Shown here piece by piece: positions 5,777-34,548 of a stretch of 39,225 nucleotides of DNA. The notes under the pieces are model-generated. The model saw only the letters and a list, made by a program, of their open reading frames with translations, was not told the origin of the DNA and ran no database searches. Positions within the stretch are counted from its first letter, which is position 1, and each line of letters opens with the position of its first letter. The translations under genes and the position numbers were made by a program. The DNA comes from a virus (Duplodnaviria; Heunggongvirae; Uroviricota; Caudoviricetes): IMG/VR virus record IMGVR_UViG_2574180019_000004, positions 1 through 39,225 of that record; one strand, 5' to 3'.

Positions 5777-6361
5777 TTATTGTTTGTTTTTTTCGTTCTG
5801 GTTGATGACAAATTCAATGTAACTTTCGATCTTTGCTTTCTCGGTTTCGGGTAACAATGCGTAGCGCGAGCGGTCATAGTTGATGGTCGCAGGGTCGTGC
5901 GGGTGAATCAGTAATTCATAGCCGTGACGCCCGAATGCGGATGCAACATTCTCCAGGGTGGAAATGGAAACGCTGACCTCATTGTTTAACAGGCGGCTGA
6001 TTGTCACCTGGGCGACGCCGGATGCGCGGTGAAGTTTTCCCTGCGTTGAAAGGTCGCGGCTTTCGCTCATCCAGCGTTCCAGGTTGTGAGCCGCCAGTTG
6101 ACCAATGTCGCTTGGTCCGACAGGCTGAAAACCTTCCTGAGAAAGCGAGCGATCGATATCAAGCCAGTTACGGGGTTTATTGGCGGCAGCTTCAATTTTT
6201 CGCGCAACCTGGTCGCCGATAACCTTCTTGCCAAGAGCCCAGCGGTTTACCAGATTTGCCTGAGTTCCAAGTTTTTCTGCCATCCGCGTCTGAACACCAT
6301 TGAATTCACGGTCGATCAAGTCGTTGAGATTTTGCCTGCGGACGTCCTGGATACTTTTCAT
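5777..6361 (-). CDS. Prophage repressor, tandem HTH (XRE-like), no obvious autocleavage domain
   Basis: 194 aa; two HTH-like segments (around LGTQANLVNRWALGKK and SGVAQVTISRLLNNEVSVSISTLENVA); flanked on both sides by the recurring palindrome; divergent from Cro-like gene. Confidence 0.7.
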   Translation of the reverse strand: MKSIQDVRRQNLNDLIDREFNGVQTRMAEKLGTQANLVNRWALGKKVIGDQVARKIEAAANKPRNWLDIDRSLSQEGFQPVGPSDIGQLAAHNLERWMSESRDLSTQGKLHRASGVAQVTISRLLNNEVSVSISTLENVASAFGRHGYELLIHPHDPATINYDRSRYALLPETEKAKIESYIEFVINQNEKNKQ

Positions 6362-15293: not shown

Positions 15294-15370
15294 TGGCGTG
15301 GCATGCAGGATTCGAACCTGCGACCAACCGCTTAGAAGGCGGTTGCTCTGTCCGACTGAGCTAATGCCAC
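15294..15370 (-). tRNA. tRNA-Arg (anticodon UCU)
   Basis: Minus-strand 77-nt cloverleaf folded by hand: acceptor GTGGCAT/ATGCCAC, D-stem GCTC/GAGC, anticodon stem ACCGC/GCGGT with loop CTTCTAA, T-arm GCAGG-TTCGAAT-CCTGC, discriminator G, encoded CCA. Confidence 0.9.
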
Positions 15371-15692: not shown

Positions 15693-15707
15693 TTACCTTA
15701 AAGGTAA
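15693..15707. promoter_or_regulatory. Perfect operator palindrome upstream of head operon
   Basis: TTACCttaaaGGTAA; ATGTGGTT motif at 15753 between it and gene start. Confidence 0.6.
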
Positions 15708-32263: not shown

Positions 32264-32950
32264 TCAGAAGAACCCTGCTTTGTCGTTGATGTACTCCGCG
32301 TGCGTCTGGATATCACGCAGGCATTTGTTCACACCGACGATGTAGCAGAACATGGTGGTCAACTCCGCCGCCGCGCCCGATACGTCGTGCCCGTCTTCCT
32401 GTAACTGGTTCAGCAGATTCATCAGCAGTGAGTTCTCCGTCAGGCCGAGAACACCAGACGGCGAGTGAATCAGACTGCGGTAGCCGGGCTTTAGTGGGGC
32501 GCTGTAGGTTTTGTTCTCTATCTTCATTGCCTGCATCACTGCTGATGCTGTGGCGTTGGCTACCTGGTCGGCAACCATCTTTATGCGTTCTTCTTGCGGG
32601 AGCGAGTTTTTAATGTAACTTCCGGTGCGGCGGATCTGAGGAAGAACCTCACCTGTAACCCATTTACGAAAGCGGTATGGGATAGTGCCTGGTGTCACCG
32701 CATCGCGGCAGCGGAGGATCAGTGTGTAGAGGCCTGACTCGTTGATAATATTGGTTTCGCCTTGACGGCCTAAGTTAAATTTAGCCCTTTCATCATCATC
32801 AAGAGATTTTATTGACATAGTGGGGTTTGTCAGTTGAAGAGCTTTAATAACGTCTTTGGCAACAAACCAAGGATTTCCATCAATAACAATGGCTCGAATG
32901 GTTGCTTCTGATTCAAAATGAAAAACAGATGGGGTTACGTTAGCAGTCAT
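32264..32950 (-). CDS. Bro-N domain antirepressor-like protein
   Basis: Start at internal ATG (MTANVTPSVFHFESEATIRAIVIDGNPWFVAKDV = Bro-N signature) with RBS AAGGTGA; C-terminal approx 70 aa paralogous to the small gene at 34096-34353. Confidence 0.75.
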   Translation of the reverse strand: MTANVTPSVFHFESEATIRAIVIDGNPWFVAKDVIKALQLTNPTMSIKSLDDDERAKFNLGRQGETNIINESGLYTLILRCRDAVTPGTIPYRFRKWVTGEVLPQIRRTGSYIKNSLPQEERIKMVADQVANATASAVMQAMKIENKTYSAPLKPGYRSLIHSPSGVLGLTENSLLMNLLNQLQEDGHDVSGAAAELTTMFCYIVGVNKCLRDIQTHAEYINDKAGFF

Positions 32951-33231
32951 AGTGATCACCTTTGTAGTTAGGTTAATCACCACTACCGACGCCAATCGGT
33001 TGGTGGTGAACTGTGCAGGGTTGGCGTAACCGGCTACAAAGGACCCGGCGCACCTTTCGGTGCCCCCACACAGCCCACCATAGAATAGGTGCGCTTTACA
33101 CATAAAAAAACCGCTTATGCGGCATATGTGCCTCTGTAGTAATCCGGGACGCCAATCCCGGCACTGGATTTTGCCAGTGCCCGATTACTATGGCACAAGA
33201 GGAGTGCGATGTAAATTTACCGTAAAGGTAA
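32951..33231 (-). promoter_or_regulatory. Structured 5' leader / candidate small RNA upstream of Bro-N antirepressor
   Basis: Hairpin 32977-33009 (12-bp stem, loop ACGCCAAT); complementary TTGGCGT at 33021-33027; hairpin 33050-33063; terminator-like ccgc-ttat-gcgg + A-run (33104-33122); three-helix element 33136-33191 with loop ACGCCAAT again; candidate -35 TTGATT / -10 TATCAT on minus strand. Confidence 0.4.
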
Positions 33232-33324
33232 TGATAAGCGCGAAGAAACATTGAAATCAACCGTATTTGGTTGATTGCGTTTAACGCTTGATCACCTGAA
33301 AGCAAGATATTACCTTTAAGGTAA
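33217..33324. promoter_or_regulatory. Two perfect operator palindromes in divergent promoter region
   Basis: TTACCgtaaaGGTAA 33217-33231 and TTACCtttaaGGTAA 33310-33324 (20 bp upstream of ATG of gene at 33345). Confidence 0.6.
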
Positions 33325-33344
33325 TGTTATTGTGAGGAAAAGCA

Positions 33345-34073
33345 ATGGAAGTTTTCTGGATAGTTGTTGGTGTGGTTGCGGTGATTATTTACGTTATCAA
33401 CCAGAACAAGACTAAGATCTCTGATCGTACGGTCGTTAATCATAACAAAACGATAAAGACCGAAGATGGGGAGATAACGATTAATCGTACACAGGTGATA
33501 GAACACACCTCTACTCAGTTTCAAAAAACTGGAGGTAATGCGCCTAATATTTCCGCACCTCCTGCTTATGATAGTGCGGTAATCCAGACATATTATAAAC
33601 AGCAGGAGTTAGCAAAAGAGAGGCAACTGATTCAGCCAAAGCCGTTTACAGCTGAGATTCCACCTGGAGTGTCAACGCGTCCGGCATATCATGGAAGATT
33701 CCCTGGTGATGACATATCGTCTCAGTCATCTAAAAAAGCACCTCAGGCAATATCAGAGCCAGCAAGAATACCTTCTGTATCGCCGCCAAAAGAAGAATCA
33801 GCTAACAGAGTTTCAAGTGGTAGCAAGCAGTGCTTGCGATGCAGAATAAACCTTCCATATGAAAAATTCAGGAAATCGTCAAAAAATCCAGATGGATTGA
33901 CTAAATGGTGTGCAAGGTGTCTCGATGGCCCAAAGAATACACGCCATATGAAGTGGTGCCCAATTTGTAATGTCCGCAGAAAACGAACCAGCTTTTACCC
34001 TAATAATCAAAATGCGGACGGCTTAATGGCATGGTGCAAAACGTGCTGGGATGAGCACAAAGCGAAACGATAG
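33345..34073 (+). CDS. Membrane-anchored tandem zinc-ribbon protein (unknown function)
   Basis: N-terminal TM helix (VFWIVVGVVAVIIYVI) followed by basic NQNKTK; S/P-rich linker; two repeated modules KxCxRC...NPDGLxxWCxxC (CLRC...WCARC and CPIC...WCKTC); RBS GAGGAAAAG. Confidence 0.65.
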   Translation: MEVFWIVVGVVAVIIYVINQNKTKISDRTVVNHNKTIKTEDGEITINRTQVIEHTSTQFQKTGGNAPNISAPPAYDSAVIQTYYKQQELAKERQLIQPKPFTAEIPPGVSTRPAYHGRFPGDDISSQSSKKAPQAISEPARIPSVSPPKEESANRVSSGSKQCLRCRINLPYEKFRKSSKNPDGLTKWCARCLDGPKNTRHMKWCPICNVRRKRTSFYPNNQNADGLMAWCKTCWDEHKAKR

Positions 34074-34097
34074 GCCGCTCTTGCGGCCTTTAAATTT
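34072..34097. terminator. Intrinsic terminator shared by convergent genes
   Basis: ggccgc-tctt-gcggcc followed by tttaaattt. Confidence 0.55.
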
Positions 34098-34353
34098 ACC
34101 GGGTTTGTTTTCGTAATTGTTCGGCACAATAGTCGAGATGTGTTTGCAGATCCCGCATAGACATCTGTGAGCTGGTGACGTAGTTAATCAGTGCAGTCAG
34201 TTCGGCAAGTGGGCCATCGACATTAAATCCATCCTTATCGAGATCCCGGAGTAATTTCATCAAGTGCGATCCCTCCACCAGTGACCTGACGCCTCCCGGC
34301 GTGTGAATCCTTTCGGTAAATCCGTCTTCCAGTGGATAGTGATACTGCTGCAT
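34096..34353 (-). CDS. Small antirepressor-like protein (85 aa), LexA-box controlled
   Basis: ATG 34353 after GGAGAAG; paralogous to Bro-N protein C-terminus (IHTPGGVRSLVEGSHLMKLL...AELTALINYV vs IHSPSGVLGLTENSLLMNLL...AELTTMFCYI); LexA box about 20 bp upstream. Confidence 0.6.
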   Translation of the reverse strand: MQQYHYPLEDGFTERIHTPGGVRSLVEGSHLMKLLRDLDKDGFNVDGPLAELTALINYVTSSQMSMRDLQTHLDYCAEQLRKQTR

Positions 34354-34372: not shown

Positions 34373-34392
34373 AACTGTATATTTATACAGTA
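34373..34392. promoter_or_regulatory. LexA (SOS) box
   Basis: aaCTGTATATTTATACAGta = CTGT-N8-ACAG, 18/20 match to consensus TACTGTATATATATACAGTA. Confidence 0.7.
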
Positions 34393-34429
34393 GCAAATAA
34401 TTTGTTTGCTATCCAGCACGTTTTGCAAA

Positions 34430-34444
34430 TCACCTGAAAGGTAA
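34430..34444. promoter_or_regulatory. Variant operator tCACCtgaaaGGTAA between antirepressor-like and tail fibre genes
   Basis: Right half perfect, left half CACC variant as at 6435 and 6802; ATGTGGTT motif at 34477. Confidence 0.4.
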
Positions 34445-34548
34445 TATCTTTTCGTATTTATGGATTATCTATCCATATGTGGTTTTTCAGGTAATAGAAT
34501 AACCAGATATGCGGCGCAACGGGTGCTGCGACTATCTGGAGATTTAAC

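Follow-up and report, generated by a model that had tools for sequence, protein, structure and literature searches.

Organization of the Bro-N antirepressor leader

The window (the whole 39,225-nucleotide stretch analyzed here) belongs to a 39-kb integrating podovirus in which the antirepressor gene adjoins the tail genes, a context like that of P22 and epsilon15. The region to the right of this leftwards-transcribed gene (32951-33231) contains a C4 antisense RNA immunity module of the phage P1 type, in standard form, together with its IsrK-like leader RNA; the regulatory element is real, and of an already known, widespread kind. Read 5' to 3' on the minus strand, which is the antirepressor coding strand and carries all of the Rfam matches, the order is promoter, a1 hairpin, b1 box, terminator, C4 (b' loop and a' junction), a2 hairpin, b2 box over the Shine-Dalgarno sequence, and Bro-N ATG. 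The features, with the a and b sites named as in the P1 record, are as follows.

33310..33324, no strand assigned: second operator of the same type as that at 33217..33231, 93 bp from it and in front of a divergent plus-strand gene (33345..34073)
33231..33260, minus strand: putative distal promoter-like site TTGATT-18-TATCAT (consensus scan), predicted start inside the operator
33217..33231, no strand assigned: palindromic operator TTACCGTAAAGGTAA, directly upstream of the proximal -35 and downstream of the distal -10
33187..33215, minus strand: proximal promoter TTTACA-17-CATAGT with an extended -10 TG (consensus scan), predicted start near 33180
33104..33180, minus strand: IsrK-like leader sRNA of ~77 nt (RF01394), consisting of hairpin 1, a1 hairpin, b1 box and terminator
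33180..33161, minus strand: IsrK hairpin 1, loop GCAAAAUC
33144..33161, minus strand: a1 target hairpin, loop AUUGGCGU (33156..33149) complementary to the C4 a' junction
33131..33139, minus strand: b1 target box CUACAGAGG, pairing with the C4 b' loop over 9 bp including one G-U
33104..33123, minus strand: intrinsic terminator (independent terminator scan), stem 33123..33110 (GCCGCAUAAGCGGU) followed by a U7 run to 33104
32999..33085, minus strand: C4 antisense RNA gene (RF01695), a 17-bp closing stem and two hairpins
33034..33042, minus strand: b' determinant, the C4 hairpin loop CCUUUGUAG
33021..33027, minus strand: a' determinant, the C4 single-stranded junction ACGCCAA, complementary to the a1 and a2 loops
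32977..33009, minus strand: a2 target hairpin, loop AUUGGCGU at 32996..32989
32957..32967, minus strand: b2 target box CUACAAAGG (32967..32959), overlapping the Shine-Dalgarno sequence AAGGUG (32962..32957), 6 nt upstream of the ATG
32264..32950, minus strand: Bro-N antirepressor gene (228 aa), the predicted regulated cargo

Homology to both RNA families is demonstrated. The C4 antisense RNA model (RF01695) matches 33085..32999 over its full length (model positions 1-87 of 87) with 79.5 bits (gathering score 45; E 7.6e-16), and the isrK model (RF01394) matches 33180..33104, terminator included, over model positions 1-77 of 77 with 76.8 bits (gathering score 50); the E-values for C4 and isrK are about 1e-16. 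A third model, RF03163 (c4-a1b1), covers 33193..33141 at 45.1 bits, slightly below its gathering score of 46.7. An initial annotation of this region had suggested an Rfam/Infernal search, in which C4 and isrK both exceed their gathering scores, and had likened the architecture to P1 c4 with a different sequence. The latter was wrong: this is a C4 homologue and not an analogue, as indicated by the two scores and the P1 immI order of the parts. That annotation overlooked the C4 RNA gene at 33085..32999 and the b' determinant CCUUUGUAG.

All of the elements that it described are present at the positions given. The hairpins at 32977-33009 and 33144-33161 do share the loop ACGCCAAT (plus strand), with identity reaching 10 nt, GACGCCAATC, at 32988-32997 and 33148-33157, and the complementary TTGGCGT is present at 33021-33027. 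The compact three-helix element (33136-33191) corresponds to two adjacent hairpins with a possible closing helix (33137-33150/33177-33190), and the terminator, a hairpin followed by U7, is on the minus strand as proposed (stem 33123..33110, U run ending at 33104). In place of the single transcript of roughly 100-120 nt that had been anticipated, two RNAs of ~77 nt each are expected, one IsrK-like and the other C4. Folding of the minus-strand RNA (256 nt) gives -116.7 kcal/mol, compared with -84.2 +/- 5.0 kcal/mol for 200 dinucleotide shuffles (z = -6.6), none of which is as stable.

The proximal promoter is invariant in the related phages ZX5 and TL-2011b, and in the 12 homologues aligned with the window a -10-like box (CATAGT, TATAGT or TAAAGT) precedes the first hairpin at constant spacing; the distal promoter-like site is conserved in TL-2011b. 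The operator motif TTACCN5GGTAA occurs 13 times in the window compared with 0.63 expected, and the copies are intergenic or promoter-proximal, the space that separates the repressor gene from its divergent neighbor being among these sites. We infer that these sites are bound by the SPC32H-type Rep, and by analogy with what is reported of SPC32H Rep (PMC9638917) the two operators could possibly be bound jointly by a Rep tetramer. There is no LexA box at the C4 promoter; the sole good one (34375-34390) precedes the small Ant gene.

RNA structure and co-variation of determinants and targets

The structure of these RNAs is likewise demonstrated. The C4 fold has 27 pairs, with 99.8% of alignment cells paired in 16 sequences and changes on both sides in 12 of the 27 (slid alignments, as a control, are 29-49% paired); the isrK helices are 94.3% paired across 13 sequences; and the a2 outer stem is 99.1% paired, with both-side changes in three of its seven pairs. 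Compensatory changes are present in the C4, a2 and isrK helices alike, which is the covariation that the initial annotation had proposed looking for. The terminator stem is extended by a lower stem of CACAUA with UAUGUG; conservation with compensatory changes is seen both in this extension and at the top of the stem. The 5' arm of the a2 hairpin, UCACCAC (33009..33003), doubles as the 3' arm of the C4 closing stem (alignment columns 83-88 are common to both), and because this arm serves both structures the a2 hairpin and the C4 fold are mutually exclusive. C4 has a 5' GGU following UAU at 33079 and a 3' ACCA tail at 33004..33001, past the stem, a sequence compatible with RNase P processing to ~77 nt. 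By comparison with P1, for which the mature C4 ends were taken from the NC_005856 annotation, the mature RNA is predicted to span approximately 33079..33002, carrying GGU at the 5' end and an ACC(A) tail at the 3' end.

Complementarity of C4 to two pairs of targets is demonstrated as well. The a' junction forms a 10 bp duplex with a1 (-16.6 kcal/mol) and pairs at seven of seven positions with a2, in its hairpin loop, and the b' loop pairs with b1 (-14.2 kcal/mol) and with b2 (9 of 9 Watson-Crick pairs, -13.2 kcal/mol), such that the summed pairing with C4 is -30.8 kcal/mol for a1/b1 versus -23.5 kcal/mol for a2/b2. A second complementary set went unremarked in the initial annotation: CCTTTGTAG at 32959-32967 is the perfect complement of CTACAAAGG at 33034-33042, with a near copy, CCTCTGTAG, at 33131-33139. 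The bipartite motif TTGGCGT-N5-35-CTACARAGG occurs three times in the window, all in the leader region, and in none of 100 shuffles; a bipartite a-b site search for further C4 targets elsewhere in the window found none. Cognate determinant/target duplexes have energies of -10 to -17 kcal/mol and crossed combinations -4 to -6 kcal/mol. As whole-molecule duplexes, C4 and its targets give z = -0.9 and -2.5 against shuffles, which was uninformative, and local contact energies together with co-variation were used in place of whole-molecule duplex energies.

Few parts of C4 vary as much between homologues as the b' loop (mean column entropy of 1.02 versus 0.53 in the stems). We examined 50 C4 loci from IMG/VR, representing 18 specificity types and chosen by a fixed-spacing pattern (one C4 helix plus an AACCC motif) that admits only loci whose b' loop is 11 nt and whose a' spacer is 6 nt. 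Across the 18 types, the loop and junction of C4 are demonstrated to co-vary with the two target pairs at fixed offsets. In this sample, in which one C4 helix is invariant by construction of the search pattern and the loci are related by descent, 16 of the 18 types have the cognate 7-mer complement of a' at a2 and 10 of the 18 have it at a1 (0 of 290 and 1 of 290, respectively, for non-cognate combinations), and the b' helices average 8.3-8.6 bp for cognate and 5.2-5.5 bp for non-cognate pairs (p about 1e-10). Cognate complementarity for b1 recurs in the homologues at about -96.

The closest relatives, ZX5 and TL-2011b, have a one-nucleotide deletion in b' that is matched by one-nucleotide deletions in both b1 and b2, and the remainder of C4 is identical; the b2 form in ZX5 is CUAAAAGG versus CUACAAAGG in the window. 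Co-change of determinants and targets between phages is the basis of P1/P7 heteroimmunity, and ZX5/TL-2011b, which differ from the window phage by a single nucleotide at each of three sites, provide a natural experiment in RNA-coded heteroimmunity.

At the megablast level at least part of the module is present in 941 of 5426 complete E. coli genomes (~17%), with at least 80% coverage in 454, and the matches listed have no annotated RNA feature beneath them. In the Uetakevirus (phiV10-like) phages the C4/IsrK module preceding the Bro-N antirepressor is unannotated in GenBank, and it was not found in the literature searched on these phages. Its recognition is of value mainly for annotation and interpretation of the phiV10-like group and will be no surprise to specialists.

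Proposed control of the antirepressor and alternative interpretations

The cargo is a genuine antirepressor. Its product matches Pfam Bro-N (72.3 bits) and PHROG 130 'anti-repressor Ant' (E 1e-56), and is 82% identical to ZX5 ORF4, overexpression of which cut lysogen counts about 1000-fold (PMC9782041); similarity to P1 Ant1 is not significant (E 0.11). The C-terminal 78 residues are 41% identical to a small SPC32H-type Ant encoded in the same phage, and represent a paralogous domain. The protein components elsewhere in the window are as follows.

5777..6361: repressor, matching PDB 5D50 chain A (E 4e-42), with HTH domains only and lacking a self-cleavage domain
34353..34096, minus strand: small Ant (85 aa), matching 5D50 chain E (E 1.4e-46)
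34375-34390: perfect LexA box CTGTATATTTATACAG in the small Ant promoter

The window is a phiV10-like (Uetakevirus) E. coli phage, and we consider it very probable that in it a P1/P7-type immI module, composed of C4 and an IsrK-like leader, controls translation of the Bro-N antirepressor. The individual steps in such a mechanism are transferred from P1, P7 and Gifsy-1. Leftward transcription would begin near 33180, from a promoter abutting the repressor operator, and a proportion of transcripts would end at 33123..33104 to give a 77-nt IsrK-like RNA carrying the a1 and b1 copies. Read-through transcripts would include C4 as well as a1 and b1, as predicted from where the promoter lies, and by analogy with P1 an RNA of ~77 nt would be excised by RNase P. 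The C4 b' loop and a' junction could then pair with b2 (32967..32959) and the a2 loop (32996..32989), and because b2 covers the ant Shine-Dalgarno sequence, ribosome binding would be blocked and the antirepressor kept off. According to a published account of C4, a GGW motif is where RNase P processes the RNA, and the ribosome-binding site is occluded by b' (PMC5320573, which cites Hartmann 1995 and Citron & Schuster 1990). The block is expected in cis, and also in trans when a phage with the same specificity superinfects.

The a1 and b1 sites may pair with the same C4 surfaces, either inside the read-through transcript or when carried on free IsrK-like RNA, which by analogy with Gifsy-1 and P1 could act as a competing decoy that relieves repression. 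The direction and weight of this interaction are uncertain, because the published Gifsy-1 model is one of activation through translation of an upstream ORF and not of relief from C4 repression. In that system IsrK pairs with the downstream 'orf45' region, as supported by the compensatory mutations G28A/C162U and G31A/C159U, and IsrK supplied in trans activates anrP translation (PMC4825925). A tentative extension, which we regard as possible while not favoring it, is a switch built from three RNAs, in which the terminated IsrK-like RNA would be a specific C4 sponge, the ratio of termination to read-through at 33123..33104 would set Bro-N antirepressor output, and the 'orf45' region of Gifsy-1 would be a C4 homologue. 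SOS/LexA and C4 immunity would then be two independent inputs into one repressor, since the Bro-N antirepressor shares its Rep-binding domain with the small LexA-controlled Ant. If true, this would reconcile the P1 and Gifsy-1 models.

We have also considered that positive control of the Gifsy-1 IsrK type is dominant here, such that cis pairing involving a1/b1 silences the mRNA (structure A), an IsrK-like RNA opens it in trans, ribosomes enter at the ATG at 33103 and continue to ant, and processed C4 is of minor importance. The minimum-free-energy fold of the leader does pair a1-b1 with C4 b'-a' in cis, equivalent to structure A (PMC4825925), the match to the isrK model is full-length, the frame from the ATG at 33103 runs in frame into ant, and in Gifsy-1 anrP translation requires both orf45 translation and IsrK in trans (PMC4825925). 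However, this ATG lies in the lower stem of the terminator and has no Shine-Dalgarno sequence, and in the homologues the frame ends at stops scattered between -23 and +55 with respect to the C4 core end, with stops inside C4 in two of the 18 types and no start codon in three. In ZX5 the ORF starts inside C4 and ends before ant, codon periodicity is absent through C4, and a model of activation only leaves the co-variation of a2/b2 with C4 unexplained. Dominance of positive control therefore seems rather unlikely to us, although it is compatible with C4 repression and the two are not mutually exclusive. That the region instead encodes protein, either as an N-terminal extension of the antirepressor (279 aa from the ATG at 33103) or as a small 'Ash family' peptide as in the ZX5 annotation, is very improbable. 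The open frame from 33103 (51 codons) does continue in frame into ant and the corresponding frame is stop-free across C4 in 16 of 18 types, GenBank MW722083 has a CDS for a 37-aa 'ash family protein' annotated over C4, and Gifsy-1 orf45 was detected as a tagged protein (PMC4825925). Yet a C4 match of 77.7 bits falls on the ZX5 CDS, the starts, stops and relation of the frame to ant are unconserved in homologues, third-position variation shows no excess, the substitutions compensate one another in RNA helices, neither Pfam nor NCBIfam gives a match to the translated peptides, and the Gifsy-1 study itself reports that the nucleotide sequence is conserved and the amino-acid sequence is not (PMC4825925). 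The protein-coding reading of the C4 region was rejected on conservation, periodicity and peptide searches. The earlier view that the region has no convincing ORF is borne out, in that both the start and the stop of the 51-codon frame are unconserved and the frame through C4 lacks conservation and any coding signal.

The hairpin and U7 terminator between promoter and ant, within a highly structured leader, could also suggest nothing more than transcription attenuation in cis, whereby read-through into ant is limited and no RNA acts in trans. This offers no account of a second conserved RNA past the terminator (C4, 79.5 bits), nor of the triplicated determinant and target sequences or their co-variation, including the three-site indel, and we judge it highly improbable. 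A cis-encoded antisense RNA of the P22 sar type, transcribed from the plus strand across the ant ribosome-binding site, might be considered from the similar context, with an antirepressor by the tail genes in a P22/epsilon15-like podovirus. We find no plus-strand promoter-like or terminator-like site in 32800-33450, the complementary sequences are on the strand of the target itself, and the Rfam matches are all on the minus strand, so that such an RNA is improbable in the extreme. A sar-like opposite-strand RNA was rejected for want of a plus-strand promoter or terminator in that interval. The earlier suggestion of antisense or attenuator control stands as regards a structured leader with a terminator and antisense regulation as in P1 c4, and fails in its likeness to P22 sar.

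Relationships to known immunity systems

The window C4 and that of P1/P7 are homologous RNAs, with the window scoring 79.5 bits compared with 68.8 bits for P1 itself. P1 immI matches the same three Rfam models, and its annotated parts (a1, b1, a hairpin and U run, c4, a2, and b2 at the Shine-Dalgarno sequence) have the same order as in the window. In P1 there are likewise one or more promoters beside a repressor operator, and b' covers the ribosome-binding site with a' binding upstream; like P1, the window C4 has a GGU at the 5' end and an ACC tail at the 3' end, as would be expected of an RNase P product. Variable determinants give differing specificities, as between P1 and P7, and the determinants themselves differ: b' is CCUUUGUAG and a' is ACGCCAA in the window, whereas those of P1 are CACUAAC and CUGUCAA. 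The P1 cargo is the icd-ant1/ant2 operon, but the window has no icd-like leader gene and b2 is directly at the antirepressor start; this concerns the cargo and not the RNA family, since other C4 loci, such as those of APSE, also precede Bro-N genes. P1 also has a C1 operator and is a plasmid prophage, whereas the window has a putative SPC32H-type Rep operator in an integrating podovirus.

The APSE phages of Hamiltonella (LR794146) encode an isrK-family sRNA, a C4-family sRNA and a BRO N-terminal domain protein in the same arrangement as in the window, with ~69% identity over part of the region in a different host and phage lineage. The APSE authors report that the C4 antisense regions match the region upstream of the Bro-N gene (PMC7313666); their annotation calls the loop a' and the junction b', opposite to the P1 record. 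The P22 sar RNA spans the ant ribosome-binding site and is made from the opposite strand. The P22 mnt-arc-ant immI region has a common purpose with the window module, post-transcriptional repression by a small RNA of a podovirus antirepressor located next to the tail genes. Unlike sar, the window regulator is on the strand of its target and, as proposed, would be processed from the target's own transcript.

The Gifsy-1 isrK-orf45-anrP locus has two hairpins, a linker and a terminator, all of which are also in the window, and in both an antirepressor gene is reached by read-through. The central segment of IsrK has a complement of ~30 nt downstream, for which the window counterpart is a1-b1 against C4 b'-a'. 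Gifsy-1 yields a processed stable downstream RNA, STnc1160 (PMC4825925), which we infer to be a C4 homologue. A search with the isrK consensus for a Gifsy-1 sequence among the phage collection returned only E. coli and Klebsiella phages. The loci differ in that the orf45 stop overlaps the anrP start (AUGA) in Gifsy-1, whereas the window frame from the ATG at 33103 has no stop before ant and is unconserved among relatives, and the downstream AntQ toxicity of Gifsy-1 has no visible counterpart in the window. The SPC32H Rep-Ant system (PDB 5D50) has the same types of repressor and small LexA-controlled Ant as the window, and corresponds to the protein layer of the switch and not to the RNA element; the secondary sources searched on SPC32H contain no mention of an RNA-controlled second antirepressor. 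With an IsrK-like RNA and C4 together in one well-defined phage that has a solved Rep-Ant structure, the window phage could help in reconciling the P1 account of repression with the Gifsy-1 account of activation.

An isrK–C4 module upstream of the Bro-N antirepressor gene

Over its first 24.4 kb the window is 98% identical to phiV10-like podoviruses of E. coli (vB_EcoP_PAS61, phiv142-3 and ZX5), so it represents, essentially in full, the genome of a temperate phage of Uetakevirus type. The interval from the minus-strand Bro-N gene ant (32950..32264) to a divergent gene starting at 33345 contains a leader, read from the minus strand, that is structured far beyond chance; the RNA from 33195..32940 has a folding energy of −116.7 kcal/mol (z = −6.6), and none of 200 shuffled sequences is equally stable. 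It contains minus-strand matches to the Rfam families C4 antisense RNA (33085..32999; 79.5 bits, gathering score 45) and isrK (33180..33104; 76.8 bits, gathering score 50), and a match to c4-a1b1 at 45.1 bits, slightly below the gathering score of 46.7. The region is a real and well-supported member of both the C4 and isrK families, with the following parts, where a' and b' are the C4 determinants, a1 and b1 their upstream target copies, and a2 and b2 the targets at the ant start.

33215..33187, minus strand: predicted proximal promoter, TTTACA-17-CATAGT, with extended -10
33156..33149, minus strand: a1 loop AUUGGCGU, target of a'
33139..33131, minus strand: b1 CUACAGAGG, target of b'
33123..33104, minus strand: terminator between b1 and C4, a hairpin followed by U7
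33042..33034, minus strand: C4 b' loop CCUUUGUAG
33027..33021, minus strand: C4 a' junction ACGCCAA
32996..32989, minus strand: a2 loop
32967..32959, minus strand: b2 CUACAAAGG, overlapping the Shine-Dalgarno AAGGUG, six bases before ATG 32950

All of the elements named in the initial annotation are present in the sequence, including two hairpins with the common loop ACGCCAAT (the identity reaches 10 nt, 32988-32997 and 33148-33157), the complementary TTGGCGT at 33021-33027, and the minus-strand hairpin and U7 terminator. A second set of complementary boxes had been overlooked, in which CCTTTGTAG (32959-32967) is the complement of CTACAAAGG (33034-33042), with a near copy at 33131-33139. All three copies of the combination TTGGCGT-N5-35-CTACARAGG in the window fall within this region, and 100 shuffles yield none; a window-wide search found no copy of the bipartite a-b site elsewhere in the phage genome. 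Contact energies are −10 to −17 kcal/mol for cognate pairs and −4 to −6 kcal/mol for crossed ones. Because one stretch serves both as 3' arm of the C4 closing stem and as 5' arm of the a2 hairpin, the two folds are mutually exclusive; co-variation supports both.

Two other features of the leader are noted. The first IsrK hairpin has a loop (33167-33174, GCAAAAUC) that hardly varies between specificity types and hence does not determine specificity; in IMG/VR contigs that are nearly identical elsewhere, such as that of locus L005, it is flipped to its complement (GGATTTTGCC versus GGCAAAATCC in the window). At the proximal promoter, the -10 region (33183-33192, CAUAGUAAUC as RNA) can pair at nine of ten positions with 32948-32957 (GAUCACUAUG, at the ant start codon), and the related loci L047 and L092 show similar complementarity; any effect would be confined to distal-promoter transcripts, and the match may be coincidence or shared descent.

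Co-variation and coding potential among related loci

An IMG/VR pattern scan, with one C4 helix held fixed, returned 119 loci, of which 50 are real C4 loci (38 unique), related by descent and carrying 18 determinant combinations. Complements of the determinants keep constant positions, at about −112 and −96 (upstream) and +22 and +51 (downstream). Of the 18 cognate combinations, 16 have a strict Watson-Crick 7-mer complement of a' at a2 and 10 have one at a1, versus 0 and 1, respectively, of 290 non-cognate ones, and the mean length of the b' helix is 8.3-8.6 bp in cognate versus 5.2-5.5 bp in non-cognate combinations. In the homologue alignment the C4 helices, one of them fixed by the search pattern, are 99.8% paired with 12 of 27 pairs changed on both sides; the IsrK-like helices (94.3% paired) and the outer stem of the a2 hairpin (99.1%) also show compensatory changes. 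The clearest case of co-variation is in the nearest relatives, ZX5 and TL-2011b, whose C4 lacks one G in the b' loop and is otherwise identical, with a matching one-base deletion in each of b1 and b2.

Two of the IMG/VR loci have unusual arrangements. L051 (IMGVR_UViG_2910425090_000003) has two C4 modules approximately 1 kb apart on one contig (2445 and 3450), with identical b' loops but different a' junctions, each with cognate a1 and a2. In L035 the a1 loop UUGGUCU mismatches its own a' (which requires UUGGAAC) while a2 matches, and its upstream half looks recombinant.

The region could alternatively be read as protein-coding. Immediately past the U run, an ATG at 33103 begins a frame that traverses C4, continues in phase into ant and is stop-free across C4 in 16 of the 18 types, and ZX5 has a 37-aa 'ash family protein' CDS annotated over C4 (GenBank MW722083, 2015-2128). 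However, homologues differ in start codon, in where the frame stops and in its phase relative to the downstream gene, and the ZX5 CDS begins within C4 and ends before ant. There is also no codon periodicity through C4 (column entropies of 0.67, 0.57 and 0.72 for the first, second and third codon positions), and the frame peptides match no Pfam or NCBIfam model. We therefore find no conserved reading frame through the region in homologues, the observation that the initial annotation had set against a regulatory RNA. The ZX5 CDS coincides with an Rfam C4 match (77.7 bits) and is probably a spurious protein call on an RNA gene; Gifsy-1 'orf45' is conserved in nucleotide, not amino-acid, sequence (PMC4825925).

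Transcription, operators and two putative antirepressors

The proximal promoter, together with a -10-like box at a fixed distance upstream of the first hairpin in homologues, predicts that leftward transcription begins near 33180. Stopping at 33123..33104 would produce a 77-nt IsrK-like RNA, and read-through would give the C4 precursor and ant mRNA. In P1/P7, C4 is described as being excised by RNase P at a GGW motif, its b' loop occluding the ribosome-binding site and a' binding upstream (PMC5320573, citing Hartmann 1995 and Citron & Schuster 1990). The C4 of the window carries a 5' GGU and a 3' ACCA tail, and we infer that it would block antirepressor translation in cis, and also in trans when a phage that shares its specificity comes in. 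The a1/b1 sites are complementary to the same C4 surfaces and are paired with them in cis in the minimum-free-energy fold of the whole leader; this corresponds to 'structure A' of Gifsy-1, demonstrated there by compensatory mutations, and in Gifsy-1 short IsrK given in trans activates antirepressor translation (PMC4825925). The IsrK-like RNA may compete for C4.

The operator noted earlier at 33217 is one of 13 copies of the palindrome TTACCN5GGTAA in the window (0.63 expected), mostly promoter-proximal and often paired 18-93 bp apart, one pair sitting where the small terminase gene begins.

TTACCN5GGTAA sites: 151; 5643 and 5705; 6417 and 6465; 8748 and 8810; 12531 and 12549; 15693; 33217 and 33310; 34430

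A tRNA gene (15297-15370, minus strand; Rfam tRNA, 73.3 bits) is near the site at 15693. The divergent promoter region also holds a perfect palindrome AATCAACCGTATTTGGTTGATT (33255-33276), located between its two operators and partly conserved in TL-2011b; one arm of the palindrome includes the distal promoter's -35 hexamer. The divergent gene (33345-34073, plus strand) encodes a 242-aa full-length member of PHROG 6762, a family without assigned function, with an N-terminal hydrophobic segment and repeated C-terminal CxxC motifs weakly matching Stc1 and endonuclease VII / Lar-like zinc fingers.

The phage repressor (5777..6361, minus strand) has HTH domains only, without a self-cleavage domain, and matches the SPC32H Rep structure 5D50_A (E 4e-42); SPC32H Rep is described as binding DNA as a tetramer (PMC9638917). 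A Bro-N domain is present in the ant product, which matches PHROG 130 'anti-repressor Ant' and shares 82% identity with ZX5 ORF4, overexpression of which reduced lysogen counts about 1000-fold (PMC9782041); the gene that C4 would control is a real antirepressor. An 85-aa gene (34353..34096, minus strand, ATG 34353; phrog_450, function unassigned in PHROGs) matches SPC32H Ant (PDB 5D50 chain E; E 1.4e-46). Its promoter region carries a perfect LexA box, CTGTATATTTATACAG, at 34375-34390, and it has a Rep-type operator at 34429-34445. A 110-aa version from a TTG start in the mechanical ORF list is probably wrong. Over its C-terminal 78 aa, the Bro-N Ant shares 41% identity with this small Ant (E 2e-20; 32264-32703 versus 34096-34353). 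With the LexA box and the shared C-terminal domain, the phage appears to have two antirepressor paralogues, one under SOS/LexA control and the other controlled by C4 RNA.

Comparison with known immunity systems

In the annotated P1 immI region a repressor operator and promoters are followed by a1 (in a hairpin loop), b1, a hairpin with a U run, c4, a2, and then b2 over the Shine-Dalgarno of the next ORF, and the order of parts in the window is identical. The proposal of P1 c4-type antisense control is supported, but not its qualification that the sequence is different, as the RNA belongs to the C4 family; the suggested likeness to P22 sar is not borne out, no sar-like opposite-strand promoter/terminator being found in 32800-33450. 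Unlike P1, the window has no icd and its Ant is unrelated to P1 Ant, and unlike Gifsy-1 it lacks the orf45 coupling feature; P1 cargo-related features and orf45 coupling are the only membership features missing. The module is present in phiV10, TL-2011b and ZX5, and of 5426 complete E. coli genomes, 941 match at least part of it. The ZX5 paper (PMC9782041) makes no mention of an sRNA or antisense control. A catalogue of the C4 motif across proteobacteria and phages dates from 2010 (PMC2864571), and the same isrK-C4-Bro-N arrangement is already annotated in APSE phages. The module is a further member of a known element type.
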